The notes: a model not told the origin generated them from the sequence alone. A DNA stretch of 37,691 nucleotides from Clostridia bacterium (GCA_017396925.1 JAFQKM010000036.1:1-37691), one strand, 5' to 3'; positions 2,674 to 18,442 are shown, counted from the stretch's first letter. Program-made: numbers and translations.

Positions 2674-3525
2674 GTGATACGAGATTTTCCCTGCACGCAT
2701 TTGCAGGATGGAGCAGAGGTTCTGTTGGAAGCTTCGTTATTGCCGGTGCCCGATATTCATCTGTATGCCGATGCTATGGGGGCATTTGCACTGGAAGTCA
2801 GGGAAAAGACGAATGCGCCCTGGTGTATGCTGCCCTTCTGCCATACCGTTGAAGCCGAGACCTTAGGCGCTAAGGTGCGCTATGGCGATCGGAAAAACGG
2901 CCCTCGTGTCGTGGATTATGCCTGCAGCACTCTGGATGATCTGCTGACCCTTCCGGACATGGATTTTACCCAAGGTCGTATCGCACAGGTGCTGGCCGCG
3001 TGCAGGGAACTGCATCGCAGGGGAGAGACCGTGATTTTGGAGATCACAGGCCCCTTTACTTTGCTGGGTGGTCTGATCGATCCGGCTTTGCTGTTCCGAT
3101 TCCTTCGAAAAGAACCCGAAAAGATGGAGCAGGTATTTGCCCATCTGCATCGTAATCTTCTGGCTTATATGCAGGCCGCCCAGGAAAGCGGCGTATCGAT
3201 CATCAGCTATGCCGATCCGACCGGCGGCGTCAACATCATCGGTCCCAAGCTGGCCGAACAGATGGTGCGCAGCTTTACCTTACCCCTTCTGCAAGGGATG
3301 GAGGACAGGCTTCATCCGGAAACTCTTGTTCATCTCTGTCCAAAGACAGCTTTTGCCCTGCTGGATACCGGCCTGGCGCAGAGCACTGCATTGCCTGTAT
3401 CAGCCCAAGCGGATTATGCCGCGGCTGTTCTGTCGGCACGGGGGAAATGCCGATTTGTCGGCCATGGCTGTATTAAAAATCACAAGTTCCGGTCGAATGG
3501 CCTCAATGGCCTGACCCTTTTATAG
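2674..3525 (+). CDS. URO-D/MtaA-family methyltransferase paralogue, shortened at both ends
   Basis: 283-aa ORF with a GTG start and AAGGGTG upstream. It aligns by eye with the next gene: CHTVEAETLGAKV vs CMTVEAEAMGAKV, ITGPFTLLGGL vs LTGPVSTASSL, ISYADPTGG vs AISDPSGTG, and HxC as VHLCPK vs VHICGQ. It lacks roughly 20 N-terminal and 35 C-terminal residues relative to that gene. Confidence 0.65.
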   Translation: MIRDFPCTHLQDGAEVLLEASLLPVPDIHLYADAMGAFALEVREKTNAPWCMLPFCHTVEAETLGAKVRYGDRKNGPRVVDYACSTLDDLLTLPDMDFTQGRIAQVLAACRELHRRGETVILEITGPFTLLGGLIDPALLFRFLRKEPEKMEQVFAHLHRNLLAYMQAAQESGVSIISYADPTGGVNIIGPKLAEQMVRSFTLPLLQGMEDRLHPETLVHLCPKTAFALLDTGLAQSTALPVSAQADYAAAVLSARGKCRFVGHGCIKNHKFRSNGLNGLTLL

Positions 3526-3536
3526 AGGAGACATTT

Positions 3537-4550
3537 ATGAATCCCAGAGAACGATTGCTCCATACCATTGAAAAAGCAGAAATCGACCGTCCGGCCTGCA
3601 TCTGCCCGGGCGGTATGATGAATATGATCACTGCCGAGCTGATGGAAAGCTGCGGCGTAAGCCTGCCTGCGGCCCATTCAGATGCACGCATGATGGCCGA
3701 TCTGGCAAAAGCCGCCTATACATCGGGCTGTTTTGAAAATGTCGGCGTGCCCTTCTGCATGACCGTCGAGGCCGAAGCCATGGGCGCCAAGGTGACCATG
3801 GGCTCCAATATTGTCGAGCCTCATGTTTCGGAATATGTCATCAATACGGTTTCCGACCATACCAAGCTGCCCTGTGTAGACCATACTGCCGGCAGAGCAG
3901 GCATTACTGTTGAAGCCATTCGCCTGCTGCGTGAAGAACTTCGTGAGGTTCCCATTGTTGGCAATCTGACCGGTCCGGTCAGCACAGCCAGCTCTTTGAT
4001 CGAGCCGACCGTCTTTTTCAAGGAACTTCGTAAGAAAAACGCCGATGCGCACGCCTTTATGGCCTTTGTGACCGATCAGCTGATCGCGTTCGGCCTGGCT
4101 CAGATCGAAGCCGGCGCCGATGTCATTGCCATTTCCGATCCCAGCGGCACGGGTGAGATCCTCGGCCCCAGATATTTTGAAGAGTTTACCGTACAGTATC
4201 TCAATCGTCTGATCGCGCCGCTCAAGGCAGCGGGTGCCAAAGTCATCGTTCATATCTGCGGACAGATGCGCCAGGTATATCCCCAGGCGAATAAAATTGA
4301 GAGCGATGTACTCAGCTTCGACTCTATTGTGCCCATTCGCGAGGCGCGGCCGGCGCTGCCCGATCGTGTGCTTATGGGCAATATAAGCACCTATACGCTG
4401 GAGTTCGGCGAGCCTGAAAAGATCGCTGTTATGACAAACTTTGCTGCCGATAACGGCTTCGATATTATCTCTCCGGCCTGCGGACTGGGTATGCGCTCGC
4501 CGCTTGGAAATATCCGCGCCATGCTGGAGACGCTGAAGGAGCGTGGATAA
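3537..4550 (+). CDS. MtaA/CmuA-type (URO-D fold) methylcobamide methyltransferase
   Basis: 337 aa with RBS GAGGAG. It has the URO-D-family core and a MtaA-type Zn site: H-x-C (VHICGQ) plus a distal Cys (ISPACGLG). Confidence 0.85.
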   Translation: MNPRERLLHTIEKAEIDRPACICPGGMMNMITAELMESCGVSLPAAHSDARMMADLAKAAYTSGCFENVGVPFCMTVEAEAMGAKVTMGSNIVEPHVSEYVINTVSDHTKLPCVDHTAGRAGITVEAIRLLREELREVPIVGNLTGPVSTASSLIEPTVFFKELRKKNADAHAFMAFVTDQLIAFGLAQIEAGADVIAISDPSGTGEILGPRYFEEFTVQYLNRLIAPLKAAGAKVIVHICGQMRQVYPQANKIESDVLSFDSIVPIREARPALPDRVLMGNISTYTLEFGEPEKIAVMTNFAADNGFDIISPACGLGMRSPLGNIRAMLETLKERG

Positions 4551-6137
4551 ATGCCGGTTCTGCACATTCTGGAAAACGGCCGACGAATCCATTGTGAAAC
4601 GGGGGAAAACCTGCTTCAGGTGCTCCATAAGGCCGAAGTCTTTATTGAAAATCCCTGTAATGGCACCGGTGTCTGCGGCAAATGCCGTGTACGCATTCTG
4701 AGTGGTGAAGCTTCCCCGATGGAAGCCACCGAACGCAGGCTGCTGAAAGAAGAGGAAATTGATAGGAGTATCCGTCTGGCCTGCCTTACCCGTGTTGTCG
4801 GCGATCTCGATCTCGAACTGCCCCGTCAGGAGCGCGGCAATCAGATGCTGACCAAGGGATATCTGCCCGACTTTACACGGGACTCGTTTGATGGCGGCTG
4901 TGGTGTTGCCATCGATATCGGCACAACAACGGTGGTTGTTTCGCTGATCGACCTGCAGACCGGGGAAGAGCTTGCTTCGGCTTCCCAGATCAATGCTCAG
5001 AAGCGATTTGGTCTGGACGTCCTTACCCGTATCACCTATGAATACGAGCATCCAGAGGCGGCTGCATCCGAACTGCAGAAGGCCATTGTCGAGCAGTTGG
5101 ATAACCTGATTCTGCAGGCTTGCCGGGATGCCGGACGTGCAGAACAGGAGATCCGTACAGTTACAGTAGCTGCCAATTGCACCATGACCCATATGCTGCT
5201 TGGTGTGGACGCCCGCCCGCTGGGACGCGCACCGTACACACCGGTTTTTAAGGCGGCACAGACCTTGAAATGTGAAGAAATCGGGCTGAAATCCTGTAAA
5301 GGTGCAAAGCTTTACTGCCTGCCGCAGGTCTCTGCTTATATCGGTTCGGATATCGTTGCAGGCGCACATGTCTGCAATATGCAGAAGGAAAAGGGGAATG
5401 TCCTCTTTATTGATATCGGCACCAACGGTGAGATCGTTCTGGCCAGTGGCGGCAGGCTGCTCTGCTGCTCCTGTGCAGCAGGCCCGGCCCTGGAGGGCAC
5501 CAATATCAGCTGCGGTATGCGTGCGGCCGAAGGCGCTGTCGAGGAGATTCGGATCCTGCCGGAACAGACCGAGCTGAAGGTGATCGGCGATACCCATGCC
5601 GTCGGCCTTTGCGGCAGCGGCATTCTGGCGGCTGTTCGCGAACTGCTGGATAAAGGCTTTGTCAAACCTTCGGGTGTATTTATTAAAAAGAGCGATTCCG
5701 GCCCGGGAGCCGACGCGCGGCTATTCCTGCGGGGAACCAAGCGCGCATTCCGGCTGGAGGGCGGTCTGATCATCACGCAGGATGATGTCCGGCAGGTTCA
5801 GCTGGCCAAAGGGGCCATTCTTTCCGGCTTTATGGCACTTCTGCGCAAGGCCGGAATCGGCATGGAGGATCTGGACAAGGTTCTGATCGCCGGTCAGTTC
5901 GGCGCACATCTGCCGGTCGATTCCCTTGTCGGCACCGGTATTCTGCCACCCGAAGTTGCAGATAAGCTGGTCTATGTGGGCAACTCGTCCAAAACCGGCG
6001 CCTATATGGCAATGATGTCGGATACCGAACGCAGATCCATGGAGCAGTTGGCCGAAAACATGGAATATATGGAGCTGGCCGAAACACAGGATTATGAAAG
6101 TCTGTTTGCGGGATGTATGATCTTCCCGAAAAAATAA
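4551..6137 (+). CDS. corrinoid reductive activase (RACE-type; 2Fe-2S ferredoxin + ASKHA ATPase)
   Basis: 528 aa. The N-terminus has plant-type ferredoxin cysteines (NPCNGTGVCGKCRV...RLACL). ASKHA phosphate motifs GVAIDIGTTTVV and LFIDIGTNGEIV are present. The ATG directly abuts the preceding TAA (4548-4553). Confidence 0.85.
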   Translation: MPVLHILENGRRIHCETGENLLQVLHKAEVFIENPCNGTGVCGKCRVRILSGEASPMEATERRLLKEEEIDRSIRLACLTRVVGDLDLELPRQERGNQMLTKGYLPDFTRDSFDGGCGVAIDIGTTTVVVSLIDLQTGEELASASQINAQKRFGLDVLTRITYEYEHPEAAASELQKAIVEQLDNLILQACRDAGRAEQEIRTVTVAANCTMTHMLLGVDARPLGRAPYTPVFKAAQTLKCEEIGLKSCKGAKLYCLPQVSAYIGSDIVAGAHVCNMQKEKGNVLFIDIGTNGEIVLASGGRLLCCSCAAGPALEGTNISCGMRAAEGAVEEIRILPEQTELKVIGDTHAVGLCGSGILAAVRELLDKGFVKPSGVFIKKSDSGPGADARLFLRGTKRAFRLEGGLIITQDDVRQVQLAKGAILSGFMALLRKAGIGMEDLDKVLIAGQFGAHLPVDSLVGTGILPPEVADKLVYVGNSSKTGAYMAMMSDTERRSMEQLAENMEYMELAETQDYESLFAGCMIFPKK

Positions 6138-6164
6138 AAATAGGAGCGCACGGAGGATATAGAG

Positions 6165-6812
6165 ATGGAAAAAGAAAAACTGTTTGCGGCCATTGCCGAA
6201 AACATTGTCGAAATGGAAGATGAAACCGTTGAGGAACTGTGCCAGCAGGCATTGGACGAAGGCATCGATGCTGCCGAGACCATCAACGAAGGTCTGATCC
6301 CCGGCATGGATAAGGTCGGCGATCTGTATGAGAGCGGAGAATACTTCCTTCCCGAAGTCCTGACCGCATCCTATGCCATGAATGTGGGCATCGATGTTCT
6401 CAAGCCTCATATCAAGCAGGAAGAGAACGGCGAAAAGATCGGCGTTGTCATTGGCGTTGTCGAAGGCGATACCCACGATATCGGCAAAAATCTGGTTCGC
6501 ATCATGAGCGAATCGGGTGGCTTTGAAGTCTGGGATCTGGGCCGCGATGTTCCGCTGGATGATTTTATTACCACAGCCGAAGAAAAGAATGCCGATTTTA
6601 TCTGCATGTCCACACTGATGACCACCACCATGGGCGGCATGAAAACCGTTATTGAAAAGCTTAAGGAAAAGGGCATTCGCGACAAGTACAAGGTCATGAT
6701 CGGCGGCGGCCCCATTTCGCAGAAGTTTGCCGATGAGATCGGTGCGGATGCCTACACAACCGATGCAGCTTCTGCCGTTAAGAAGATGAAGGAACTGAAG
6801 GGAGCAAAGTAA
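6165..6812 (+). CDS. B12-binding corrinoid protein (MtaC/MtbC/MttC-like)
   Basis: 215 aa with a helical cap plus Rossmann domain. The lower-ligand motif D-x-H-x-x-G appears as GDTHDIGKN (D102/H104/G107). RBS GGAGGA. Confidence 0.9.
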   Translation: MEKEKLFAAIAENIVEMEDETVEELCQQALDEGIDAAETINEGLIPGMDKVGDLYESGEYFLPEVLTASYAMNVGIDVLKPHIKQEENGEKIGVVIGVVEGDTHDIGKNLVRIMSESGGFEVWDLGRDVPLDDFITTAEEKNADFICMSTLMTTTMGGMKTVIEKLKEKGIRDKYKVMIGGGPISQKFADEIGADAYTTDAASAVKKMKELKGAK

Positions 6813-6815
6813 GCT

Positions 6816-7913
6816 ATGGATCTGATCGCAAGCTACCTCCACGGTCTGGAGGTCCCCAAGGATGAACTGACCAGCCTGGAACGTACCACACTGTACGGTC
6901 AGGGCAAGCCGGTCGACCGCATTCCCGCCAGCCTGGACGGCGGCGAAACCATGTCCTATCTGGTAGGCGCCGGCATGGACGAGTATTATTTCTCGTCGGA
7001 GATCATGGCACAGGTCGAAGAATATATTCATCGCAAGTTTGGCTCCGACGGTGCCGGTATTTCCACATCACTCCGCGGCATGGCCGAAGCCATGGGTTCG
7101 GAGATCAAATATTCCAAAAACAATGTTGCACAGCTGGCCAAGCCCGCACTCCATCTCAGCGAGGTTGACAATGCCAAGCTGGTCGATGTCGATAAGGACG
7201 GCCGTCTGCCCATCATTCTTGATGCTGTCAGAAAGGTCAAGGATCGTCTGGGCAAAGAAGTGTCGGTCAGCGCATCGGTCACCGGCCCTCTGTCGATCGC
7301 TGCCATGGTTCTGGGCACCGAACAGCTGCTGATCGGCATGATCAAGAAGCCCGAAAAGGTCCATCAGCTGATGGAGGTCATCGTCGAGAACAACAACCGT
7401 CTGATCAAGCGCCTGGTCGAAATGGGCGTCAGCATCGGTTTCCCCGATCCCGTCAGTTCGACTGCTCTGATCAGCGTCGAGCAATACCGCAAGTTCTCGC
7501 TGCCTTATTTCAAGAAGAATGTCGATTATGTCAAGAGTCTCGGCGGCGGCTGCGGCCTGCATATCTGCGGCACCAGCCGTAAGCTGTGGGAAGATCTGCG
7601 CGACACCGGCATCGGCGCTTTCAGCCTCGACAATGTCGAAAGCCTGGAAGAGGCCAAGATCGTTCTCGGCGGCACCATGGGTATCCAGGGTAATGTTCCG
7701 CCTGTTGATGTCATGAAGCTGGGCACATCGCACGATGTTCTGCGTGCAGCCCGTGAATGCATTCGCCAGGGCTGGGATTCGCCCAACGGCTTTACCCTGA
7801 CATCCGGCTGCCAGATGCCGGCTAATACACCCGAGGAAAATATGCAGGCCCTGATGGATGCCGCCCGTATCTTTGGCCGCTGGCCCATCGACCCCGAAAA
7901 GCTGATCGGTTAG
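6816..7913 (+). CDS. URO-D-family methyltransferase (third paralogue; candidate substrate:corrinoid MT)
   Basis: 365 aa starting 3 nt after the corrinoid protein stop. It has the URO-D-like core (VTGPLSIAAMVLG, GFPDPVSS) and Zn-site-like LHICGTS plus TSGCQMP. It has a longer, divergent N-terminus. Confidence 0.8.
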   Translation: MDLIASYLHGLEVPKDELTSLERTTLYGQGKPVDRIPASLDGGETMSYLVGAGMDEYYFSSEIMAQVEEYIHRKFGSDGAGISTSLRGMAEAMGSEIKYSKNNVAQLAKPALHLSEVDNAKLVDVDKDGRLPIILDAVRKVKDRLGKEVSVSASVTGPLSIAAMVLGTEQLLIGMIKKPEKVHQLMEVIVENNNRLIKRLVEMGVSIGFPDPVSSTALISVEQYRKFSLPYFKKNVDYVKSLGGGCGLHICGTSRKLWEDLRDTGIGAFSLDNVESLEEAKIVLGGTMGIQGNVPPVDVMKLGTSHDVLRAARECIRQGWDSPNGFTLTSGCQMPANTPEENMQALMDAARIFGRWPIDPEKLIG

Positions 7914-7945
7914 CCCATTTTGCACAGAAAAAAGTATAGACAAAA

Positions 7946-7978
7946 TAAAAAACGGACCGACAAACGGTCCGTTTTTTA
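7946..7978. terminator. bidirectional intrinsic terminator between convergent genes
   Basis: The stem AACGGACCG (7951-7959) pairs with CGGTCCGTT (7965-7973) around the loop ACAAA. An A-run lies 5' and a T-run 3'. Confidence 0.85.
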
Positions 7979-7994
7979 TATATTACCGGTTCTG

Positions 7995-8717
7995 TCAGGA
8001 TTTTGTCCATTCGCCTTTCCAGTTGTTGGTATCAAAGTAATAAACTTCGGCAACACCCTTGCTGTCGAGGATGGCGGCAGCGGCATCTACGGCTTTGATA
8101 TCGTCGGCAATCAGCACAACAGGCATTGCTGCTTCAAAAGAAGCTTCGCCAAGGGCAGACAGGGGAAGGCTGACGGTGCCTTCGATATGGCCGTCGGCAT
8201 AGGCTTCGGCCGAGCGGATATCGATGCGCAGGCAGCTTCCGGCAAGCGCCTGCTGGAACTGCAGCGGACGCAGCTTGCGGGGAAGAGCACGGGGGATATC
8301 CAGCTCCATATCTTTGACTTCGTCGAGGATCTCGGCGATCAGCGTAATGGTGGGCATGCAGCTTTCCTTTTCGGTCAGATACTTGGGCATGAGATGGGCA
8401 CAGGCTGTACTGCCCATGCGTTCGGCAACGCGCTCCTGAAAGATCTTGGCCTTTGCCATGAGCAGGGGACTCTGATGGCCGGTGATATGCACATAATAGT
8501 GGCTGAGGGCAGCTACACCGCCACTGACGGCGCCGCATACTCCCTGCACACCCATGCCGCCGCCAAAGCCGCCCATCAGGCGGAAAGCTTCCTCGGGAAG
8601 ATGCAGCTCCCAGGCTTCATCGGCCGCACGCAGGGTGGTCTCTGCGCAGTTGTAGCCGAGGCCGTGAAAATAATGATGCAGACATTCGGTAACTTTCTTT
8701 GCCATTGGAAAAACCAT
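7995..8717 (-). CDS. C_GCAxxG_C_C family redox-type protein fused to a rhodanese-homology domain lacking the catalytic Cys
   Basis: 240 aa; the start may be the second Met, at 8705. The N-half has YNCAETT, GVCGAVSGG and a distal ...STACAHL...ESCMP. The C-half is rhodanese-like (IDIRSAEAYADGHIEGTVSLPL...PVVLIADDIKAVDAAAAIL...NNWKGEW). The usual CxxGxR loop position reads IADDIKA. Confidence 0.75.
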   Translation of the reverse strand: MVFPMAKKVTECLHHYFHGLGYNCAETTLRAADEAWELHLPEEAFRLMGGFGGGMGVQGVCGAVSGGVAALSHYYVHITGHQSPLLMAKAKIFQERVAERMGSTACAHLMPKYLTEKESCMPTITLIAEILDEVKDMELDIPRALPRKLRPLQFQQALAGSCLRIDIRSAEAYADGHIEGTVSLPLSALGEASFEAAMPVVLIADDIKAVDAAAAILDSKGVAEVYYFDTNNWKGEWTKS

Positions 8718-8909
8718 CCTTTATTATTGGTTGAGTTGATTGTATCATAGATTTCGGTTGCTGTATCCTGCAAATCAAGTATGTTTGGAACTTTCAATAA
8801 AGAAGCAGGCATCCATTTGTATTTCGAATAAACCTGTGCTTTCCTTGACTTTTACATGGAATACAGCTACGTTAAATACATATAGTGCCTGAAGAAAGGA
8901 CAGAGATCC

Positions 8910-11051
8910 ATGGAAAAGTATACAACAGAAGAATTGCTGCAGGCCAGAATCCCCGGTGAGGAGACCGGAATCACGGTCAAACGCACCATCTGCGGTTTCT
9001 GCGGCGAAAACTGCCTTGTGGATGCCTATATGAAAGACGGCAAAATCATCAAGGTTGAAGGCTGCGACAGCCTGCCTGTGGCCAACAGCGGCAAGCTGTG
9101 CGTCAAGGGTGCTGCACTGAAGCAGACCATTTACCATCCCGAGCGCCTGCTCTATCCCATGAAGCGCGTGGGTGCGCGCGGCGAAGGAAGATTCGAACGC
9201 ATCACATGGGAAGAAGCCATGTCGACCATTGCGCAGAAAATGCAGGAGACCAAGGAATCGCACGGCGCCAAGGCGACGCTGGTCTATGCCGGTCATCCCA
9301 AGTGGTTCCGCCATCAGCTGACCGAGCTGTGCAATGCCTACGGTACCCCCAATTTCGGCACCGAGTCGAGTTCCTGTGCCTATGCACGCATGCTGGCCAA
9401 TGAAACGGTATTCGGCACAACCGGCCGCGGCGCCATGCCCGATATGGCCAACACCAACACATTGCTGATCTGGGGCGTCAATCAGATGTATTCCCGCTCG
9501 GTTACCGGCTCCAAGAGCCATCTGAAGCTGGAAGAGAAGGGGGTCAATATCATTGTTGTCGACTCCCGCCATACACCGACCACCGATCATGCCACCCTCC
9601 ATCTGCAGCCCATTCCCGGCACCGACGGTGCCTTGGCTCTGGGCATGGCACAGGTCATCATTTCCGAAAATCGCCATGATATGGCCTATATCGAAAAGAA
9701 CTGCACCGGCTTTGAAGCCTATAAAGACTATGTCTCGGGCTTCACTCCCGAAAAGGTCGAAGCTATTACCGGTGTTCCGGCAGACCTTGTGATTCGGGCG
9801 GCTCGTCTGCTGACCGAGAACGGTCCCTTCGGCCTGCAGATGTCGGCATCGCCGATGGTGCATCACATCAACGGCGTACAGAATGTCCGCGCCATCAATG
9901 CGTTGGTATTGCTCACCGGCAGCTTTGGCGTCAAGGGCGGTACGGCCGGTCCCGGTCCCGGCCGCGGCGGCTTTAAAAACGGATTCCTGATGAATCCGCT
10001 CCACCGCGTCGATGCCGACCAGGATCTGAGCCATGCCGAGTTCCCGGCATGGGCACAGCTCAATTTCTATGAAACCCAGGTCACCCGCATTGCCGATTAT
10101 ATGGAGGGCAAGGGCGATTATCCGATCCATACCCTCATCGCCTTCGGTATGAACCACCACATGTGGGCTCAGCCTGAACACGTGGAAGAAGCCTTCAAGG
10201 GCCTGGATTTCTTCGTTAATATCGATATGTACAAGACCGACACCTGTGATTATGCCGATATCATCCTGCCTGCCGCCACGGCCTTAGAGCGTGAACAGCT
10301 GCTGATGATGGGCAAAGGCCAGATCCTCGACCTGCAGCCCATCATTGAACCAATGGGCGAGGTTCGCAATGATATGGAAATCATTCTTGAGCTGGCACAG
10401 CGCCTTGACCTTGAGATCGGCGATCCCGTGCTGAAAAATTACGACGATTATCTGCGTATGTCGCTGATGGGTACCGGCCTGACTCTTGAGGAGCTGCGTG
10501 CCGCACCCGACGGCCTGCCCAAGCCCGGTAAGCTGGCGATGCGGACAACCGAGCAGATTCTGTCGAATGTCCGTACACCCAGCGGCAAACTGGAGTTTGT
10601 TTCGTCGGTACTGGAAGGCTGTGATATGCCCCATCACGACAGCCTGCCCGTCTACCGTGATTTCCGCGAAACATTGCCGATGGATGAATATCCCCTGATC
10701 CTCTGTACAGGCTGCCGCAAGCCGCAGCTTTTCCATAAACGTACCTATCGAATGCCCTGGCTCAATAATCTGGAAGAATCGCCGGTCATCGAGCTGCATC
10801 CCGAAACGGCAAAAAAGCTGGGTATTGCAGATGGTGAGATGGTTCGCGTGGTTACCCCGATCGGCGCACTGGAGATGCGTCTGCTCCACGATACTTCCGG
10901 TCTTCCCGGTGTTGTCCATGTCTATCATGGCGCCAGGGACAAAGATATCAATTCTCTGCTGGATGAGAAATACTACGATCCCATTTCCGGCTTCCCCGGC
11001 TACAAATCCTATTGCTGCCGTCTGGAAAAGCTGGAACAGAAGGAGGCATAA
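8910..11051 (+). CDS. molybdopterin (Mo/W-bis-PGD) oxidoreductase catalytic subunit, DMSO-reductase superfamily, cytoplasmic
   Basis: 713 aa. The N-terminal FS0 motif is CGFCGENC...GKLCVKG. The candidate metal-ligand region is NFGTESSSCAYARM. The C-terminal PGD-binding barrel reads YPLILCTGCRKPQLFH...ELHPETAKKLGIADGEMVRVVTPIGALEM. There is no twin-arginine leader (MEKYTTEELLQARIPGEETG...). Confidence 0.9.
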   Translation: MEKYTTEELLQARIPGEETGITVKRTICGFCGENCLVDAYMKDGKIIKVEGCDSLPVANSGKLCVKGAALKQTIYHPERLLYPMKRVGARGEGRFERITWEEAMSTIAQKMQETKESHGAKATLVYAGHPKWFRHQLTELCNAYGTPNFGTESSSCAYARMLANETVFGTTGRGAMPDMANTNTLLIWGVNQMYSRSVTGSKSHLKLEEKGVNIIVVDSRHTPTTDHATLHLQPIPGTDGALALGMAQVIISENRHDMAYIEKNCTGFEAYKDYVSGFTPEKVEAITGVPADLVIRAARLLTENGPFGLQMSASPMVHHINGVQNVRAINALVLLTGSFGVKGGTAGPGPGRGGFKNGFLMNPLHRVDADQDLSHAEFPAWAQLNFYETQVTRIADYMEGKGDYPIHTLIAFGMNHHMWAQPEHVEEAFKGLDFFVNIDMYKTDTCDYADIILPAATALEREQLLMMGKGQILDLQPIIEPMGEVRNDMEIILELAQRLDLEIGDPVLKNYDDYLRMSLMGTGLTLEELRAAPDGLPKPGKLAMRTTEQILSNVRTPSGKLEFVSSVLEGCDMPHHDSLPVYRDFRETLPMDEYPLILCTGCRKPQLFHKRTYRMPWLNNLEESPVIELHPETAKKLGIADGEMVRVVTPIGALEMRLLHDTSGLPGVVHVYHGARDKDINSLLDEKYYDPISGFPGYKSYCCRLEKLEQKEA

Positions 11052-11054
11052 GCC

Positions 11055-11483
11055 ATGGCAAAGATCATTTGTGAAGAAAAGAACTGTTCGGGCTGCCTGG
11101 CCTGTGTCGTGGCCTGCATCGATCAGCATTATGACGAAACAGCAGGGGAGGCGCTTTCCTGCCGCATCCACGAGAAGATCACAACAGAAACCGGCCTTGT
11201 GCGTTACACGACTCGTACCTGCCATCACTGCGCCGATGCTCCCTGTGTCAAGGTTTATCCCACAGAAGCCCTCTATATCAACGAGATGGGGCTGGTCATC
11301 CCTGTGCGCGACAAGTGCATCGGATGCCGTGCCTGCGAAGCGGCCTGTCCCTTCGACATTCCCCGTTTCGACGGCGAGGGCAAGCTGGTCAAATGTGACG
11401 GCTGTGCTGCCCGTCAGGCGCATGGCCTGCTTCCGGCCTGTGTCCGCACCTGCAATACAGGCGCACTGAAGCTGGGAGAATAA
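11055..11483 (+). CDS. 4Fe-4S poly-ferredoxin electron-transfer subunit (DmsB/PsrB-like, compact)
   Basis: 142 aa with four Cys groups: CSGCLACVVAC, CHHCADAPC, CIGCRACEAACP and CDGC...CVRTC. A 3-nt gap follows the catalytic subunit. Confidence 0.9.
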   Translation: MAKIICEEKNCSGCLACVVACIDQHYDETAGEALSCRIHEKITTETGLVRYTTRTCHHCADAPCVKVYPTEALYINEMGLVIPVRDKCIGCRACEAACPFDIPRFDGEGKLVKCDGCAARQAHGLLPACVRTCNTGALKLGE

Positions 11484-11508
11484 CAGCTTTCGATATTTTG
11501 TCTGCATC

Positions 11509-11542
11509 AGATCCTCCGGCGCCTGTCGGAGGATCTTTTTTT
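11509..11542 (+). terminator. intrinsic terminator after the Mo-enzyme operon
   Basis: The stem AGATCCTCCG (11509-11518) pairs with CGGAGGATCT (11527-11536) around the loop GCGCCTGT. A T7 run follows. Confidence 0.88.
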
Positions 11543-11567
11543 ACGGAAACGAGACAGGGGAGATGGC

Positions 11568-11596
11568 TTGCTTTCAACTATGGAAAGCGGTATAGT
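11568..11596 (+). promoter_or_regulatory. sigma-70-type promoter for the vWA-MoxR-LRR operon
   Basis: TTGCTT (11568-11573), a 17-nt spacer, then TATAGT (11591-11596). It lies 35 nt upstream of the ATG at 11632. RBS AAAGGAGGG. Confidence 0.5.
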
Positions 11597-11631
11597 TATC
11601 ATAGAGGAGAATCGGGAAAGGAGGGCAGAGA

Positions 11632-13050
11632 ATGACAAGGAAACAACAGGATCCTGCCATGCTGGAAGAGCTGGCAAATAAGATTCTGCAGTTGGATATT
11701 CATACTTTGATGGTCGATCTGCGGTATCTGCGTGTGGCGCTGCAGCAGCTGAAACCGGCATCTGATCCCGAGGGCAGCCTGGCCACCGATGGCGCATATC
11801 TTTATTATGCACCCCAGCATATTTTGCGCCGCTATAAAAAAGATCCTGCGGCGTCTGCGCGGGACTATCTCCATGTTGTGCTGCACTGCATCTTCCGGCA
11901 TATGTACCTTTCCGAAAAAGTCCGACCTCAGTACTGGGACCTGGCCTGTGATATTGCCGTTGAACATATAATCAGTGGGCTGGATCTGCGTTCTCTGGCA
12001 GCAGAGCGGCACAAAGACCAGCGCAGTGTTCTTGAAGAACTGAAGCAGCAGATCGGAGCGCTGACTGCGGAAAAGATTTATCGGTGGATGCTGGAACAGA
12101 AATTGCCGCAGGAAGAGCTTGAGAAGATGCGCAGGCTCTTTTATGCCGATGACCATGCACTCTGGCATCTCAATGCCGAGGAAGACGATGCGGACGATGG
12201 CGATCGGGAAGAAAAAGAGCCCGGGGATCGGCAGGAGTCCGGTGCGGAAGGTGCCCCCAAAACCGAAGCCGAACCGCAGATCGATGCACTTGATGCCGAG
12301 CGCCGTGAAGCCCGTGCCATGATGGAAACCATCTGGGCAGACATGGCACGGCAGGTGGAAATGGAACTTGCATCCTTCAATAAAGCAAGCGATGGCCGTG
12401 CCGATGCCCTGACGCAGAATCTGCTGGCCGTCAACCGTGAGAAATATGATTATACGGCTTTTCTGCGCAAGTTTGCGGTGCGCAGTGAAGTCATGCAGAT
12501 CGATCCGGATACCTTTGATACTGTTTTTTACACCTACGGCCTGCAGCTGTTTGGCAATATTCCGCTGATCGAACCGCTGGAATACAAGGAGATTCGTCGC
12601 ATCCGTACATTTGTCATCGCTATCGATACTTCAGGCTCAACGACAGGTGCGCTGGTGCAGCGGTTTATACAGAAGACCTATAATATTCTGCAATCGACCG
12701 AAAGCTTTTTCTCGCAGATCGAGCTTTATATCCTGCAATGCGATGATGAGGTGCGGGAGGCTGTACGCATCACTTCTCTGGAGGAGTTTGATGCATACAT
12801 GAAAACCATGCAGATCCGCGGCCATGGCGGCACAGATTTTCGCCCGGTCTTTTCCTATGTTGACGATCTGCGCCGCAGAGGAGAACTGCGCGATCTTCGC
12901 GGCCTGATCTATTTTACCGATGGCTACGGCACCTTTCCACAGGCAAAGCCGGATTATGATACAGCCTTTGTTTTTGTCGACGATACCTATCAGCGGCCCG
13001 AAGTGCCGCCCTGGGCCATGCGTCTGATACTGCGTCCGGAAGAGATCTGA
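11632..13050 (+). CDS. DUF2201-type protein: metallopeptidase-like N-domain + acidic linker + vWA domain
   Basis: 472 aa. The N-domain has HVVLHCIFRH...WDLACDIAVE, where this family normally has an HExxH-type motif. An acidic linker NAEEDDADDGDREEKEPGDRQESGAEG follows. The C-terminal vWA has MIDAS FVIAIDTSGST (D332/S334/S336) and ...IYFTDGYG. Confidence 0.8.
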   Translation: MTRKQQDPAMLEELANKILQLDIHTLMVDLRYLRVALQQLKPASDPEGSLATDGAYLYYAPQHILRRYKKDPAASARDYLHVVLHCIFRHMYLSEKVRPQYWDLACDIAVEHIISGLDLRSLAAERHKDQRSVLEELKQQIGALTAEKIYRWMLEQKLPQEELEKMRRLFYADDHALWHLNAEEDDADDGDREEKEPGDRQESGAEGAPKTEAEPQIDALDAERREARAMMETIWADMARQVEMELASFNKASDGRADALTQNLLAVNREKYDYTAFLRKFAVRSEVMQIDPDTFDTVFYTYGLQLFGNIPLIEPLEYKEIRRIRTFVIAIDTSGSTTGALVQRFIQKTYNILQSTESFFSQIELYILQCDDEVREAVRITSLEEFDAYMKTMQIRGHGGTDFRPVFSYVDDLRRRGELRDLRGLIYFTDGYGTFPQAKPDYDTAFVFVDDTYQRPEVPPWAMRLILRPEEI

Positions 13051-13081
13051 TATATACCTACGCGGATAAAGGGGATCCATT

Positions 13082-14614
13082 ATGAATATCAAAGAAGCAA
13101 AAGAACAGATCAAATATGCCATGACGGCCTATTTTACCAAGGATGATTTTGGAAAGTATGTCATTCCGCCCGAAACCCAGCGACCGGTTTTCCTGATGGG
13201 CCCTCCGGGCATTGGCAAAACCGCCATTATGGAGCAGATCGCTTCCGAACTGGGGGTCGGACTGGTTTCCTACTCGATGACCCATCATACCCGACAGAGT
13301 GCTTTGGGTCTGCCTTATATTGAAAAGAAGAATTACGGCGGCAGGGAATATACCGTTTCGGAATATACTATGAGTGAGATCATCGCGTCGGTCTATGATC
13401 TGATGGAAGAGAGCGGCCTGCAGGAGGGCATTCTTTTCCTCGACGAGATCAATTGTGTATCCGAAACACTGGCGCCTGCTATGCTGCAGTTTCTGCAGTA
13501 CAAGACCTTTGGCCGTCATCGCGTGCCTGCGGGATGGATCGTTGTTACGGCAGGCAATCCGCCCGAATACAATAGTTCGGTTCGCAATTTTGATATTGTC
13601 ACCTGGGATCGACTCAAGCGCATCGATGTCGAGCCCGACTATGGCGTATGGAAGGAATATGCGCATATCCGCGGGGTGCATCCGGCGGTAACTACCTATC
13701 TGGATATTCGCAGAGATGATTTTTATCATGTGGAAACAACGGTCGACGGCCGCAGCTTTGTTACGGCCCGTGGATGGACCGATCTCTCCGACATGATCAA
13801 GCTTTACGAGCGCCATGGCATGCCTGTGGATGAAAAACTGATCGGCCAGTATCTGCAGGATCCCCGTGTTGCCGGCGAGTTTGGCGTCTATTACAGTCTC
13901 TTCAGCAAGTATAAATCCGACTATCAGATCGACCAGATCCTGGCCGGTAAAGCATCGGCCGAGGTCAGAGAACGCGCTAAGGCAGCTCGCTTCGATGAGC
14001 GCCTGGCGCTGCTTGGCCTTCTGCTCGACGGTGTGACCGACCGTCTGCGGGGTATCTGCCGCATGGAACAGAGTCTCAACAAGCTGATGGGTGTGGTTAA
14101 GAATATCCGTATCGATCTGGCCCGTCCCGGTGCGCAGGCTGCACAGGCCATTCAGAAACAGATCGACGGTATTGAGAAACGAATTGAAGCCGGTCAGTTG
14201 GCTTCCTCTCTGTCGGCCGATAGTGTTTATGCCTGCCGTATGGCCATCGATCTTCTCGAGCGGCAGCGAGCACAGCTGGCTGTCGAGGGCGGCGGAGCTG
14301 CCGAAGCCATCAAGCTGCTCAAATCGGCATTTGATGCCCAGGTTGCGGCCCTCAAAGCCGATGCGATATTGGCCGGAGACCAGCTGAGCCATCTGTTTGC
14401 CTATTGCGCCGATGTCTTTGGCGACGGCCAGGAGATGGTTGTATTGGTCAACGAGCTGACCATCAGCTACTATGGGATGCACTTCATCAGCCGATATGGC
14501 TGTGCACCTTATTTTGAATACAGCAAAAAGCTGCTCTTCCGCGAACAGCAGCGTGAGATCCTGGGTGCTCTGGACCGCCTGGAGATCGATTGGGATCAGG
14601 ATCCCGGGATTTAG
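13082..14614 (+). CDS. MoxR-like AAA+ ATPase (AAA_5 type) with a long helical C-terminal extension
   Basis: 510 aa with RBS AAAGGGGA. Walker A is GPPGIGKT (aa 40-47), Walker B is ILFLDE (aa 117-122), and VVTAGNPPEY is sensor-1-like. Residues from about 290 to 510 are Ala/Leu/Gln/Arg-rich and look helical. Confidence 0.85.
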   Translation: MNIKEAKEQIKYAMTAYFTKDDFGKYVIPPETQRPVFLMGPPGIGKTAIMEQIASELGVGLVSYSMTHHTRQSALGLPYIEKKNYGGREYTVSEYTMSEIIASVYDLMEESGLQEGILFLDEINCVSETLAPAMLQFLQYKTFGRHRVPAGWIVVTAGNPPEYNSSVRNFDIVTWDRLKRIDVEPDYGVWKEYAHIRGVHPAVTTYLDIRRDDFYHVETTVDGRSFVTARGWTDLSDMIKLYERHGMPVDEKLIGQYLQDPRVAGEFGVYYSLFSKYKSDYQIDQILAGKASAEVRERAKAARFDERLALLGLLLDGVTDRLRGICRMEQSLNKLMGVVKNIRIDLARPGAQAAQAIQKQIDGIEKRIEAGQLASSLSADSVYACRMAIDLLERQRAQLAVEGGGAAEAIKLLKSAFDAQVAALKADAILAGDQLSHLFAYCADVFGDGQEMVVLVNELTISYYGMHFISRYGCAPYFEYSKKLLFREQQREILGALDRLEIDWDQDPGI

Positions 14615-14638
14615 CCCCAACAGGAGGGATAAAACGGC

Positions 14639-17446
14639 ATGTACGGTGAACATATATTTACCATTCAGGATGGTGTTCTGAAAAAATACAGTGGACCGGG
14701 CGGCGATCTGACTCTGCCCGGGCATATCCATACGATTGCCGATTCGGCCTTTGAGGGCTGCCGTACGCTGAAGGTTTTACACCTGCCGACAGGACTGCTT
14801 TCTATTGGGCGAGGAGCTTTTCGCAACTGCGCCGCTTTGCATACGGTAACCTTTGCAGACGGCCTGATATCGATCGGAGATAGTGCTTTTCAGGGCTGCG
14901 CCGGTCTGAAAGCGGTCGAGCTTCCCGACAGTGTATGCAATTTAGGCATAGAAGTCTTTCGTTACTGCCGTAATCTCAGCTGGATCATTCTGTCGGAAAG
15001 CCTCCGCGAGCTGCCGGCCGGCCTTTTCAGCAACTGTATGGCACTGGAAGAGACCACTCTTCCTGCCGGTATCCGAAAAATAGGACCACGTGTATTTGAA
15101 GAATGCCGAAAGCTTCACCGGTTGAATCTGTCCGAGCAGCTTCGTGAAATTGGCAGAAGTGCCTTTTCCGGCTGTATAGCCCTTACATCTGTATTATTGC
15201 CGGCCTGTATGCAGAAAATCGGCGTAAATGCATTTCAAAGCTGTGCCGGCTTGGCTGAAATCGGCATTCCGGGTCGCGTTCGGCGGATCAGCGAAGGGGC
15301 TTTTATGGGATGCGTACAGCTTTCGGCACTGTGTTTTAATGAAGGAACGATATCGATTGGCAGAAATGCCTTTGCCGGCTGCGGTAAACTGCGGAAGCTG
15401 GAACTGCCTGCGACCCTTGAAAAGGTATCGGCTGGGGCCTTTGCCGGCTGTTCCGATCTGGAACAGGTGATGATCCGGGGGGCTGCCGCTGCCATCAGTC
15501 CTTCGGCATTTGACCATAGTGAATCTCTTTGTCTGACTGCGCCCAATATTTCCTTTGCAAATCTTCGTGGTACCTGCCGAAAGGCGGCGCTGCGCGGCTT
15601 TGCGGCAGATTATGACAAAAAAGCAGCCGGATATACTGCAGAAGTTGCAGAAAGCTATCTGACATATATCAGACGATCGCGCAAAAGATTGTGGAAGGAT
15701 CGTGATATGCTTCGAATTCTGCTCGATCAGAAAATGATCGGCAGACAGGAGATCTTTGATTATACCGAAGAGGCATCCATGCTGGGAGATGCCGAGATCA
15801 GCGTTCAGCTGCTGGAATACCAGCACGCGCATTTTTCCATGGAGGACATTCTGGCCGAGACACAGCGTCGCCAGGAACAGGCATTCGACCGGATGCTTTT
15901 CGGCATGCCTTTGTCGGCAACCGAGATGAAAAAGATCTGGGATACCGAAAAGGCGGCCGATGGCAGCCTGATTCTCACCGGATACAGGGGAGAGGAAGAA
16001 GCTCTGTTTCTGCCCGAGAAAATCGGAAAGAAATCGGTTTCCGCTGTAAGGATGGGTGCGGGCTTTCAGGGTGCGGGCATTCAGACGATCGTGATTCCGG
16101 CCTGCATCACACAGGTGGCCTGCAATCCTTTTTTGGATGGAAGCACCCTTCAGGAGATTCTGACTGCCGAAGATCATCCGGTTTATCGATCTGCAGACGG
16201 AATGCTTTTCTCACAGGACGGAAAAATGCTGCTGCGATGTCCCAGAGGAATAGGCGGTGAAATCGTTCTGCCGTCTGAAACCGAGGAAATCGGCCCGGAA
16301 GCATTCAAGGATTGTGCCAACATCCAAAGCATCCGGCTTCCCGAGGGTATGCGCCGCATTGGTGCGGGTGCTTTTCGGGGATGTGCAGGCCTGAAAGAAA
16401 TGAACTTACCTGCGCAGCTCACAGAGATTCCGGCCGGACTGTTTCAGGGCTGCTCGGGCTTAGAGAAGGTTACATTGCCCGAAGGCTTGACCTCCATTGG
16501 GGTCGGTGCCTTTGGCCGATGCAGTGCTTTGCGGCAGATTGTTCTGCCGGAAGGCCTTACAGAACTGCAGCATGGTGCTTTTCTTGGCTGTGCGATGCTG
16601 GAAGAAATCACGGTGCCGAAAGGGGTAAAAACGCTGAGCGGTACCTTCGAAGGATGCAGTGCTCTTCGGCGCATTGTTCTGCCGGAGAAATTGGAAGATC
16701 TGGGAAGTTATACCTTTCAGAATTGCCGCACGCTGGAAAATGTAGCTGTTCCGGCGGATGTACAGCAGATCGGTATGATGACCTTTGCAGGCTGCCATAT
16801 GCTGCAGACGGTCGAGCTTGGAGAAGGTTTACGGGAGATTGGCCGTTCGGCCTTTGAGGACTGCCGCAATCTGCAGACGGTTCATTTACCCAAGCGTCTG
16901 ACCACCATTGGAGATGCGGCCTTTAAAGGCTGCGTGCGTCTGACCGATATGCAGGCTTCCGAACGATTAACCAGTATCGGCAGTTCGGTCTTTGAAGGGT
17001 GTGCATCTTTGCGCGATCTGCTGCTGTATGCAGGTATGCGTGAAATCGGTAATGCGGCCTTTAAAGGCTGTACCGGCCTGCAGAAATCGATCATACCAAA
17101 AGAAATGCGCATGATTGGTGAAAGTGCCTTTGAAGGCTGTACCGGTCTGGGTGAACTGACCATTCCCCGAAACATCGCCGTAGTTGGCCGCGCAGCCTTC
17201 CGCGGCTGCACGAGCCTGGAATCGGTCATCATCGAGTATGGTGTGAAAAAGCTCGATTGGAGCACCTTTGAAAATTGTGTGCGCCTGCGTTATATCGAAG
17301 TGCCGAGAACGGTCTGGTTTATCGGCGCCAGTGCATTTCGCGGCTGCCCGGAGATCGTTCTGCATGGCATTGCCGGCAGCTTTGCCGAAACCTTTGCCGG
17401 AATCCAGCAGGTGGCTTTTGTGCCTGATCTGCAGCAGAAAACATAA
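14639..17446 (+). CDS. BspA-type leucine-rich-repeat (LRR_5) protein, two repeat modules, no signal peptide
   Basis: 935 aa with RBS AGGAGGG. Dozens of 23-aa units of the form LxxIxLPxxLxxIGxxAFxxCxx are present. The N-terminus MYGEHIFTIQDGVLKKYSG is not hydrophobic. I saw no LPXTG or other anchor. Confidence 0.9.
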   Translation: MYGEHIFTIQDGVLKKYSGPGGDLTLPGHIHTIADSAFEGCRTLKVLHLPTGLLSIGRGAFRNCAALHTVTFADGLISIGDSAFQGCAGLKAVELPDSVCNLGIEVFRYCRNLSWIILSESLRELPAGLFSNCMALEETTLPAGIRKIGPRVFEECRKLHRLNLSEQLREIGRSAFSGCIALTSVLLPACMQKIGVNAFQSCAGLAEIGIPGRVRRISEGAFMGCVQLSALCFNEGTISIGRNAFAGCGKLRKLELPATLEKVSAGAFAGCSDLEQVMIRGAAAAISPSAFDHSESLCLTAPNISFANLRGTCRKAALRGFAADYDKKAAGYTAEVAESYLTYIRRSRKRLWKDRDMLRILLDQKMIGRQEIFDYTEEASMLGDAEISVQLLEYQHAHFSMEDILAETQRRQEQAFDRMLFGMPLSATEMKKIWDTEKAADGSLILTGYRGEEEALFLPEKIGKKSVSAVRMGAGFQGAGIQTIVIPACITQVACNPFLDGSTLQEILTAEDHPVYRSADGMLFSQDGKMLLRCPRGIGGEIVLPSETEEIGPEAFKDCANIQSIRLPEGMRRIGAGAFRGCAGLKEMNLPAQLTEIPAGLFQGCSGLEKVTLPEGLTSIGVGAFGRCSALRQIVLPEGLTELQHGAFLGCAMLEEITVPKGVKTLSGTFEGCSALRRIVLPEKLEDLGSYTFQNCRTLENVAVPADVQQIGMMTFAGCHMLQTVELGEGLREIGRSAFEDCRNLQTVHLPKRLTTIGDAAFKGCVRLTDMQASERLTSIGSSVFEGCASLRDLLLYAGMREIGNAAFKGCTGLQKSIIPKEMRMIGESAFEGCTGLGELTIPRNIAVVGRAAFRGCTSLESVIIEYGVKKLDWSTFENCVRLRYIEVPRTVWFIGASAFRGCPEIVLHGIAGSFAETFAGIQQVAFVPDLQQKT
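14711..15523 (+). repeat. N-terminal block of roughly 11-12 coding LRR_5 repeats (69-nt period)
   Basis: Consecutive units such as LKVLHLPTGLLSIGRGAFRNCAA / LHTVTFADGLISIGDSAFQGCAG / LKAVELPDSVCNLGIEVFRYCRN ... Confidence 0.8.
16001..17353 (+). repeat. C-terminal block of roughly 17-19 coding LRR_5 repeats (69-nt period)
   Basis: Units such as IQSIRLPEGMRRIGAGAFRGCAG / LKEMNLPAQLTEIPAGLFQGCSG ... At the DNA level the near-identical 24-mers GCCTTT(A/G)AAGGCTGTACCGG(C/T)CTG at 17057-17080 and 17126-17149 lie exactly 69 nt apart. Confidence 0.85.
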
Positions 17447-17483
17447 AAAAAGGCCCTGTTCCGGTTGGAGCAGGGCTGTTTGT
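17445..17483. terminator. bidirectional intrinsic terminator (LRR gene / deacetylase gene converge)
   Basis: A6 precedes the stem GCCCTGTTCC (17453-17462), the loop GGTT and the stem GGAGCAGGGC (17467-17476), which includes one G-U pair. TGTTTGTT follows. Confidence 0.7.
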
Positions 17484-18260
17484 TCAGGATGCATCCGAGG
17501 GGGCGCAGGGGATCTGCCGGCCGGTATGATCCAGTTCATAGTTTTCCCGATAGATCAGTTCTGAGATCGGTACGAAAGAATAGCCTTCCCGGATCAATCC
17601 CTCAATCACAGAAGGCAGTGCCTGCGGTGTATATTTAGCAGCGTTGTGAAACAGGACGATCGAGCCGGGCTGTACCTTTCCCAGTACGCGATCGATGATG
17701 TCCTGTGTACCGCTTTCTTTCCAGTCCAGACTGTCGACATCCCATTGGATGGGGTAATGGCCCATCGAGCGCAGCGTATTGATGACCTGATCGTTATAAT
17801 CGCCATAGGGCGGACGGAACAGGAAAGGACGCACACCGGTCACGGCTTCGATCTTATCGTCGCAGGCCGATACATTTTCGATGATCTGCTGTTCGGTCAG
17901 TTCGGTCATATGAGGATGGTTATCGGAATGATTATGTACTTCATGGCCGGCATCATGCAGGGCTTTGACCGACTCGGGGTATTTATCGACCCATTCGCCC
18001 ACAACGAAGAAGGTGGCACGGATACTATATTTGCCCAGAATGTCGATGAGCTGCTGGGTGTCTTCATTGCCCCAGGCGGCATCAAAGGAGAGGGAACAGA
18101 CCTTGCTGTCTTTTTCCACGCAGTAAATAGGCAGCTGACGTGTGGCGCTGGCCGTCAGAACAGCCTGGCCGCTTTGGGTAGTATAAAAAATGGCGACGGT
18201 CAGAATGAAGAGGACCGCCGACAGCAGCCATCGCCTGTGCTTGCTCCAGAAATCAATCAT
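17484..18260 (-). CDS. polysaccharide deacetylase (NodB homology domain; PdaB-like), N-terminal membrane anchor
   Basis: 258 aa. It has a TM helix WLLSAVLFILTVAIFY and the NodB motifs SFDAAWG, HEVHNHSDNHPH and RPPYG. Confidence 0.85.
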   Translation of the reverse strand: MIDFWSKHRRWLLSAVLFILTVAIFYTTQSGQAVLTASATRQLPIYCVEKDSKVCSLSFDAAWGNEDTQQLIDILGKYSIRATFFVVGEWVDKYPESVKALHDAGHEVHNHSDNHPHMTELTEQQIIENVSACDDKIEAVTGVRPFLFRPPYGDYNDQVINTLRSMGHYPIQWDVDSLDWKESGTQDIIDRVLGKVQPGSIVLFHNAAKYTPQALPSVIEGLIREGYSFVPISELIYRENYELDHTGRQIPCAPSDAS

Positions 18261-18442
18261 AAGAATACCTCCAAATAGCTTTGCTTTATAGATATGTTTC
18301 GAGCAAACAGAAAAGACTTATAGAAAAAGTTTTGGAAGAAAAGGGAAATACACAAAACTGTTTTGAGCAATCTGTACAGAAAACAGAAAAGTTTTCATCT
18401 AAAATACTAAAGTCCTACAGAGGTGTCTTTACACATTTTTGG

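Follow-up and report, generated by a model that had tools for sequence, protein, structure and literature searches.

The 37,691-nucleotide contig of a Clostridia bacterium that was analysed here over its whole length (GCA_017396925.1, JAFQKM010000036.1:1-37691; hereafter the window) raises the question of what a von Willebrand factor A (vWA) protein, an ATPase associated with diverse cellular activities (AAA+) and a leucine-rich repeat (LRR) protein do together when their genes form a unit of their own. An initial annotation had read these three genes as a functional triad and possibly as a conflict system of the MoxR-vWA 'ternary' kind. As set out below, the linkage of the three genes is conserved and not accidental, and the triad was upheld and sharpened by a protein module which the LRR partners share, while the conflict role is plausible but unproven. 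Our tentative preference is for a machine, built from an AAA+ ATPase and a vWA domain with a metal ion-dependent adhesion site (MIDAS), that would work on or through module-tagged LRR or ankyrin (ANK) binders in an accessory and probably conflict-related role. We found no description of such a cassette in the literature, including under DUF2201, DUF4132, DUF3150/COG3864 and the combination of LRR, MoxR and vWA.

The cassette is a genuine, self-contained and autonomous three-gene unit. Gene 1 (11632-13050; 472 residues) encodes the vWA protein, gene 2 (13082-14614; 510 residues) the ATPase and gene 3 (14639-17446; 935 residues) the LRR protein, all on the plus strand and separated by gaps of 31 nt (genes 1 and 2) and 24 nt (genes 2 and 3). 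Purine-rich sequences resembling ribosome-binding sites (RBSs) precede the ATGs of genes 1, 2 and 3 (AAAGGAGGG, AAAGGGGA and ACAGGAGGG, respectively). Upstream, an intrinsic terminator on the plus strand (11509-11546; a 12-bp stem at 11509-11536 with seven GC pairs, then T7) ends an operon for a molybdopterin oxidoreductase and a ferredoxin and isolates the cassette from it. A promoter-like TTGCTT-17-TATAGT follows at 11568-11596 on the same strand (TTGCTT at 11568-11573, TATAGT at 11591-11596); it was read in the sequence, was not among the matches of a consensus promoter scan of the window, and is kept, with the RBS and ATG, in a sister lineage from which the rest of the cassette has been deleted. 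Downstream, a bidirectional terminator hairpin (17452-17477; an 11-bp stem with seven GC pairs) is shared with a convergent polysaccharide deacetylase gene. Reading frames, spacers, RBSs, promoter and both terminators all lie where the initial annotation had placed them, and the autonomy it had proposed for the unit holds. A contig from a metagenome-assembled genome, JAFXHZ010000158.1, has the same arrangement as the window.

Relatives of gene 1 are numerous. At least about 8,000 homologues were scored, relatives with ~50-56% identity occur in Clostridia assemblies, and at least 591 species-representative genomes contain relatives; when 1.84 billion cluster representatives were searched exhaustively, 931 matched at E <= 1e-30, each standing for a 50%-identity cluster, and 6,139 at E <= 1e-3. 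One cultured carrier is Pseudoflavonifractor capillosus An827 (L013). For the neighbourhood survey, the 80 best-scoring of the at least 591 genome loci were taken with their 10-kb flanking regions and examined by tblastn, by a crude calling of open reading frames (ORFs) combined with phmmer, and by clustering 1,122 ORFs all against all. Only three families are conserved across these loci: vWA in all 80, LRR in 63 (with 151 genes) and AAA+ in 62. No other family reaches more than 9 of the 80, and the clustering gave no conserved fourth gene or effector; nor was an enzyme domain found in the large LRR proteins or in the genes wedged between vWA and AAA+. The AAA+ gene is co-directional with the vWA gene in 62 of 80 loci, with contig ends cutting most of the others, and one or more adjacent co-directional LRR genes are present in 43 of the 57 loci in which both pair genes were called, against an LRR background of 4.8% of the flanking coding sequence outside cassettes. 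The LRR protein is accordingly a genuine conserved partner of the pair, as the initial annotation had supposed.

Within this conserved linkage, the LRR component is the most variable. In 30 loci the LRR genes are interposed between vWA and AAA+, in 12 they stand upstream and in 8 they come after AAA+, which makes the vWA-AAA+-LRR order of the window a minority arrangement. They form tandem arrays of up to six paralogues, as in L053. The closest relative (L001/L002, 66% identity) has the same trio, with a third protein likewise of 935 residues, placed after the rplJ-rplL genes; since this setting is unlike that of the window, the trio moves as a unit. The distance matrices of vWA and AAA+ proteins correlate (r = 0.77), and in orthologous cassettes divergence increases from AAA+ through vWA to LRR, with identities of 80, 65 and 57% between the window and L001 and of 88, 82 and 44-64% between L064 and L070. 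In L081, a contig from a metagenome-assembled genome, the vWA-AAA+ pair occurs twice in less than 12 kb, once on each strand (2479-4852, minus; 10001-16307, plus).

What best characterises the third component is less its LRR than a new module of docking type. In gene 3, LRR_5 matches (seven stretches, E 3e-193) occupy residues 1-290 and 476-935, and the ~180-residue non-LRR region that separates the two blocks gave no match in a Pfam scan. Within this region, at residues ~340-470 (15656-16048, plus strand), lies a segment consisting of ANK-like helices, a charged helix and an LRR N-cap, with the core LLEYQHAHF and with Glu386, Leu391 and Trp434 nearly invariant. An iterative search found this module, ~110 residues long, in 135 proteins from 66 loci, among them 112 of the 123 cassette LRR proteins that have 350 residues or more. 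Of 57 cassettes, 44 have a module-bearing gene, as against 9 of 430 genes outside them. Cassettes that seemingly have no LRR gene can encode non-LRR partners with the module, such as an ankyrin protein in L063 and proteins of 548 and 570 residues in L026 and L069. Among array paralogues that are 38-49% identical overall, the module is the best-conserved block (column conservation 0.8-0.9), with the consensus GWLk-PKkRDEmIeYA-enGkTEc-AWLLDFKNRTADlAAE-KAEKK-RELNA-P-SV-ELKK-W. It is a previously undescribed tag common to the LRR partners of the cassette; a global search with its profile returned 27 fragments only, all of them short, and revealed no further architecture.

The module was also considered as a divergent form of DUF4132, a domain that is fused to cassette LRR_5 proteins at three loci (L005:14519-16966, L020:14827-17574 and L051:4514-9952). 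This was ruled out by hhalign (probability 0.1%), and in the LRR-DUF4132 fusions a 40-residue piece of the module stands at the extreme C-terminus. A census of the Pfam domains in 85 module proteins recorded LRR_5 in 77, ankyrin repeats in 8, DUF4132, BRCT and FNIP in 3 each, DUF6273 in 2 and Sel1 in 1. No enzyme or effector domain was found in these 85 proteins or in gene 1.

As far as a crude hydrophobicity test can show, the LRR partners are cytoplasmic. Gene 3 has no segment resembling a signal peptide or a transmembrane helix, in agreement with the initial annotation, which had taken its product as not secreted. Among 127 cassette LRR proteins, none has a signal-peptide-like N-terminus, the proteins starting directly with the LRR cap, and three have a transmembrane-like segment. 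Gene 3 is in this respect unlike the BspA-type surface adhesins, with which it shares LRR_5 repeats, in having neither signal peptide nor anchoring.

In the pair itself, the MIDAS and ATPase motifs are intact. Gene 1 belongs to PF13203 (DUF2201_N; E 1.5e-10, 41.5 bits against a cut-off of 23.2) and PF09967 (DUF2201; E 1.3e-13, 51.5 bits against 26.4), exceeding the gathering score in both, and these families, AAA_5 in gene 2 and LRR_5 in gene 3 are the ones that had been anticipated. Its vWA/MIDAS domain (residues ~325-472) is intact: D332-x-S334-x-S336, T401 and D430 (encoded at 12619-12927, plus strand) are invariant in the family alignment, the window protein reading DTSGS and 81 of 81 proteins DxSxS. 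An acidic linker (12175-12306, plus strand; 42% D/E in a 40-residue window) is predicted to be disordered, with a predicted local distance difference test (pLDDT) score below 50 at residues 182-215. The N-terminal domain (residues 1-180) had been described as metallopeptidase-like, and the domain call stands, but the active motif does not. The degenerate zincin motif at 11863-11907 (plus strand), DYLHVVLHCIFRHMY, has HVVLH instead of HExxH, with His81, His85, His90 and Cys86 kept and the catalytic Glu replaced by Val; this Glu is lost in 78 of 80 family members, which have I, V, L, M, S or T in its place (H-[IVLMST]-x-x-H), while His81, His85, His90, Cys86 and Asp107 are retained across the Clostridia family. 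The motif in the window and the loss in 78 of 80 members argue against an active zincin metallopeptidase. Since the catalytic Glu is lost although the metal-ligand histidines are kept, the domain is predicted to be a conserved, catalytically dead pseudo-peptidase which serves in binding and not as a protease. In an AlphaFold2 model of this domain (pLDDT 88.9), Foldseek found no significant fold match in the PDB; the best of the weak matches were the antirestriction protein ArdC (E 0.57) and AM0627.

Gene 2 matches AAA_5 and AAA (E ~2.5e-8; PF07728 with 34.5 bits against a cut-off of 22) and falls in the MoxR/midasin clade. Walker A (MGPPGIGKT) and Walker B (GILFLDEI), encoded at 13196-13450 on the plus strand, are invariant across 59 homologues, in which GPPGIGKT, ILFLDE and TAGNP show no variation; these motifs, the MIDAS and the acidic linker are all present as the initial annotation had reported. 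The protein ends in a helical tail of ~220 residues that varies among homologues, and in the 59-sequence alignment mean column identity is 89% in the core (residues 31-170) and 48% in the tail (residues 291-400). An NCBIfam scan of the trio returned nothing above threshold.

The cassette is widespread in gut Clostridia yet dispensable. Sister lineages were found through a homologue search with the flanking deacetylase, and in one of them (L101-L103, deacetylase 88% identical) the locus is syntenic on both sides and has no cassette. The interval absent there is 11754-17507, a deletion of ~5.7 kb on which blastn and the gene maps of L101-L103 agree; the alignment of L101 with the window shows homology at 10900-11753 and 17508-18347 only. 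The junction (L101:10778-11086) joins window positions 11484-11753 to ~17440-17507 and leaves a short relic ORF, in which the sequence from the promoter through the RBS and ATG to about codon 40 of gene 1 runs straight into the terminator. Because a syntenic sister lineage has deleted it, the cassette is accessory. In a more distant relative, L104/L105 (deacetylase 76% identical), an MmeI-family restriction-modification gene adjoins the deacetylase orthologue (6333-9170), and accessory genes may be inserted preferentially near the deacetylase gene.

How such a machine might work is suggested by midasin (Rea1/MDN1), an AAA+ protein of ribosome assembly in eukaryotes, whose MIDAS domain grips a conserved acidic residue, a Glu of a ubiquitin-like (UBL) domain, on a substrate adaptor and removes the adaptor mechanically. 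Midasin is the best PDB sequence match of gene 2 (E 4e-8), and the full model of gene 1 matched generic vWA folds only in Foldseek, the MDN1 MIDAS domain (MIDAS/UBL complex) among them. The cassette and midasin have in common an AAA_5-type ATPase module, a flexible D/E-rich linker and a MIDAS domain; unlike midasin, the cassette machine is divided between two small proteins, has a single AAA module in each chain and has no UBL substrate, and the likeness holds at the level of clade and fold only. By this analogy, the nearest functional model would be a split midasin. The gene 2 ATPase, presumably a hexamer, would be the motor, and gene 1 would be its adaptor, with the MIDAS vWA domain tethered through the acidic linker to the pseudo-zincin binding domain. 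The module of gene 3, present in up to six paralogues in relatives, could be the handle at which the MIDAS and pseudo-zincin adaptor docks, with Glu386 as the candidate MIDAS ligand in place of the UBL Glu, and the energy of ATP would then serve to pull at the LRR protein, or to change its shape, together with the cargo of its variable repeat surface. Physical docking is something we infer, as is the direction of action, in which the LRR proteins could be either clients or adaptors.

Recognition of variable targets seems to us the likeliest role for the LRR proteins, because they are the fastest-evolving and copy-variable component and contain binding domains only, and because the cassette is accessory and is lost as a unit. 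Their targets would most plausibly be phage or mobile-element proteins, which ATP-driven remodelling or removal would follow, and the system could then be a binder-repertoire conflict system that has no toxin effector. If the system does act in immunity, its output mechanism would be unconventional, since no effector domain was found. A more specific form of this proposal, which we regard as rather unlikely as it stands, is a toxin-less immunity in which a repertoire of fast-evolving cytoplasmic LRR and ankyrin receptors, each for a different phage or mobile-element protein, would plug through the common module into a split midasin-like motor that strips, unfolds or disassembles invader proteins. 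Such a repertoire would be a prokaryotic counterpart of LRR innate receptors, coupled to a segregase and not to a cell-death effector.

The proposed ancestry of the conflict reading did not withstand comparison. The ternary systems of Kaur et al. (2020/2021) have as third components VMAP, iSTAND, iSTAND2, TERNS3, FtsH or a beta-propeller, carry effector fusions, are of CoxE-type ancestry and are enriched in multicellular bacteria (PMC7159879, PMC8195603). The cassette resembles them in joining a MoxR-vWA pair to a conserved third component with recognition-type repeats, and in having variable, diversifying components. It differs in that an LRR_5 protein tagged with the module takes the third place, that neither this protein nor the vWA protein has effector fusions, that the vWA domain is of PF09967 and not of the CoxE-derived PF05762, and that its hosts are unicellular gut Clostridia, not multicellular actinobacteria or cyanobacteria; against PF20030 (bpMoxR), gene 2 scores 23.2 bits, below the 27-bit cut-off. 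Membership in these systems, as suggested in the initial annotation, is therefore rejected, none of their defining features being present.

Several further observations weigh against the preferred reading. The flanks of the surveyed cassettes are heterogeneous, with 119 Pfam families in 109 proteins, each family being present in five at most (FtsH, UvrC, QueH and ABC transporters being examples), and mostly of a housekeeping kind. They are only weakly defence-like, and PADLOC matches among the 109 flank proteins are sporadic: one each for Cas1, a methyltransferase, a GajB-like helicase and a reverse transcriptase, and a few for mad3/mad8, while the IetA matches are probably FtsH-type AAA proteins. 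No clear defence-island setting, which had been considered, emerges from these proteins. In the cassette itself, PADLOC 2.0 gave no match for genes 1 and 3 and weak, P-loop-level IetA matches only for gene 2. The partners proved free of effector domains in the Pfam census, and the faster evolution of the LRR proteins could reflect relaxed constraint instead of an arms race. Moreover, ~20% of pairs have no module-bearing neighbour, several of these being cases of a truncated contig or of a gene on the opposite strand, and the survey is restricted to the best-scoring loci and to crude gene calls. Since there is no Kaur-type membership, no clear defence-island context and no PADLOC match, we put the conflict role forward as plausible but unproven. 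Individual neighbourhoods do vary. L003 (1-17401) is defence-island-like, with a UvrD-PDDEXK helicase-nuclease, an RNase_T-family protein, a WYL regulator, a 1,203-residue BRCT-containing protein and HEPN_Swt1; the LRR partner in this locus has a BRCT domain.

The strongest competitor of the conflict reading, although we think it the less likely of the two, is that the pair is a chaperone which folds, assembles or recycles LRR and ANK clients with an ordinary scaffolding or regulatory function. In well-known cases the client is an enzyme, Rubisco for CbbQ/O and NorB for NorQ/D. Characterised MoxR-vWA pairs are typically encoded beside their client (PMC7159879), and the cassette likewise has a pair adjoining its presumed target protein or proteins, with both partners co-evolving. 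As in RavA-ViaA, CbbQ-CbbO, NorQ-NorD and CoxD-CoxE, an AAA_5/MoxR ATPase with intact Walker motifs is co-encoded, in conserved operonic linkage, with a vWA protein that has a complete MIDAS. The conserved module could serve as a client handle, and the mostly housekeeping flanks and the lack of effectors in the census would fit a chaperone as well. Unlike the chaperone pairs, however, the cassette has a vWA protein of the DUF2201 lineage with a degenerate zincin N-domain and a long acidic linker, its vWA gene precedes the ATPase gene, and its partners are variable LRR/ANK arrays and not a metalloenzyme. A client-chaperone role also sits poorly with the loss of the whole cassette in a close relative, with LRR copy numbers from 0 to at least 6 in the fastest-evolving component, and with the occurrence of some copies in mobile-element-like contexts.

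The E. coli yehF-yehQ cluster, another MoxR-vWA pair that is uncharacterised, was examined as a possible homologue. It comprises WGR, DUF4132, the AAA_5 protein YehL, DUF5682, the VWA_CoxE protein YehP and SWIM, with the DUF4132 proteins YehH/YehI (L094:4280-7912) accompanying YehL/YehP. Its link to DUF4132 is shared with the three cassettes in which this domain is fused to an LRR protein, and DUF4132 may be a general MoxR-vWA-associated domain. Unlike the cassette, the yeh pair is of CoxE type, is accompanied by DUF5682 and SWIM and lacks LRR_5. Homology was rejected, there being no similarity to YehL or YehP beyond the P-loop, and the cluster is a thematic analogue only.

It is improbable, in our view, that the cassette is in essence mobile-element cargo with an anti-defence, replication-associated or host-takeover function, of which the chromosomal copies would be domesticated or decaying remnants. 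The idea has a basis in pairs of DUF2201_N-DUF2201 proteins and adjacent MoxR-type ATPases in phages and plasmids (phrog_1314/phrog_1297), in which the DUF2201 proteins belong to the same two-domain family as gene 1 at 20-23% identity and conserve the MIDAS; both pair genes have full-length PHROG counterparts. All BFVD matches of the gene 1 N-domain in Foldseek are phage proteins (template modelling scores 0.5-0.65), annotated as 'VWA-like/metallopeptidase domain'. In Synechococcus phage MinM2 (L095:1-4390), a MoxR ATPase, DUF3150, small ORFs and a DUF2201 vWA gene with an intact HExxH follow one another in this order, with primase genes nearby, and make up an uncharacterised phage counterpart of the pair. 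In addition, an identical cassette variant (P0045, 19 contigs from different samples; L005/L006/L007:1-8000) lies near DUF7768, a RecD2-like helicase, a DnaG/DUF3854 primase and YqaJ, which suggests that this copy is carried on a recently spreading mobile element. However, the phage and plasmid versions, such as those of MinM2 and Moorella phage MTATph1, are ~390 residues long, lack the long acidic/helical insert and LRR partners, and stand in replication-module neighbourhoods; where aligned (MinM2, MTATph1 and a Simplicispira plasmid), they keep the canonical HExxH. Relatives in mobile-element collections are few (6 of 2.9 million IMG/VR contigs, 15 weak phage records and one plasmid) compared with the at least 591 cellular species genomes, and these searches argue against a cassette that is primarily mobile. 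In the window, the genes downstream of the cassette (deacetylase, IMPDH, UvrB, UvrA, UppS, Dxr and RseP) and the metabolic genes upstream indicate that it is embedded in the core chromosome, and no integrase or att-like features were found in these flanks.

A role in maturation of, or metal insertion into, the neighbouring molybdopterin oxidoreductase or corrinoid enzymes, comparable to that of CoxD/CoxE, is very improbable and has been largely refuted. Its appeal lies in the gene order of the window, where the oxidoreductase (713 residues) and its Fer4_11 ferredoxin (142 residues) at 8910-11483 are directly upstream of the cassette, and in MoCoBD-family enzymes upstream in L075 and L077. MoCoBD accounts for only 2 of the 109 flanking proteins, though, the strong terminator and the separate promoter part the cassette from the enzyme genes, and the orthologous trio of L001 follows ribosomal protein genes. 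Above all, the sister lineage that lacks the cassette keeps the whole block of Mo-enzyme and corrinoid genes intact, the oxidoreductase/ferredoxin pair included, and a maturation role for these enzymes is therefore effectively refuted. With the heterogeneous flanks, this agrees with the earlier expectation that the pair is not tied to one metalloenzyme. The remainder of the block, a cluster for corrinoid-dependent methyl transfer at 2674-8750, comprises three URO-D/MtaA-like genes, a RACo reductive activator (2Fe-2S plus ASKHA) and a B12-binding corrinoid protein; ORFs of 276 residues (7920-8750) and 700 residues (127-2229) have no Pfam match. An Rfam scan of the window (1-37691) gave no family at gathering score, and hence no cobalamin riboswitch 5' of the corrinoid cluster.

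Lastly, although LRR_5 proteins are common in these genomes and gene 3 shows sub-threshold NCBIfam similarity to the adhesins HupY and LrrG (175 bits for HupY against a cut-off of 1250), an LRR gene that is adjacent by accident or encodes a secreted BspA-type adhesin is hardly credible, being refuted by neighbourhood statistics (LRR linked in 63 of 80 loci, often between vWA and AAA+), by the cassette-specific module and by the lack of signal-peptide-like N-termini in the partners.

In summary, Clostridia of the gut and rumen have an abundance of cytoplasmic BspA-type LRR proteins, to which, to our knowledge, no function has been assigned. A large subset of these proteins is now linked to a specific ATP-driven machine, for which the shared module, the candidate MIDAS ligand Glu386, the pseudo-zincin domain and Walker or MIDAS mutants provide experimental handles. 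If the conflict reading is true, the cassette would represent a new design of bacterial immunity, made of a binder repertoire and a motor and no toxin; if the chaperone reading is true, it would add a new class of clients to those of MoxR-vWA systems. On either reading, the 'ternary' concept of MoxR-vWA systems now takes in another vWA lineage and the Firmicutes.

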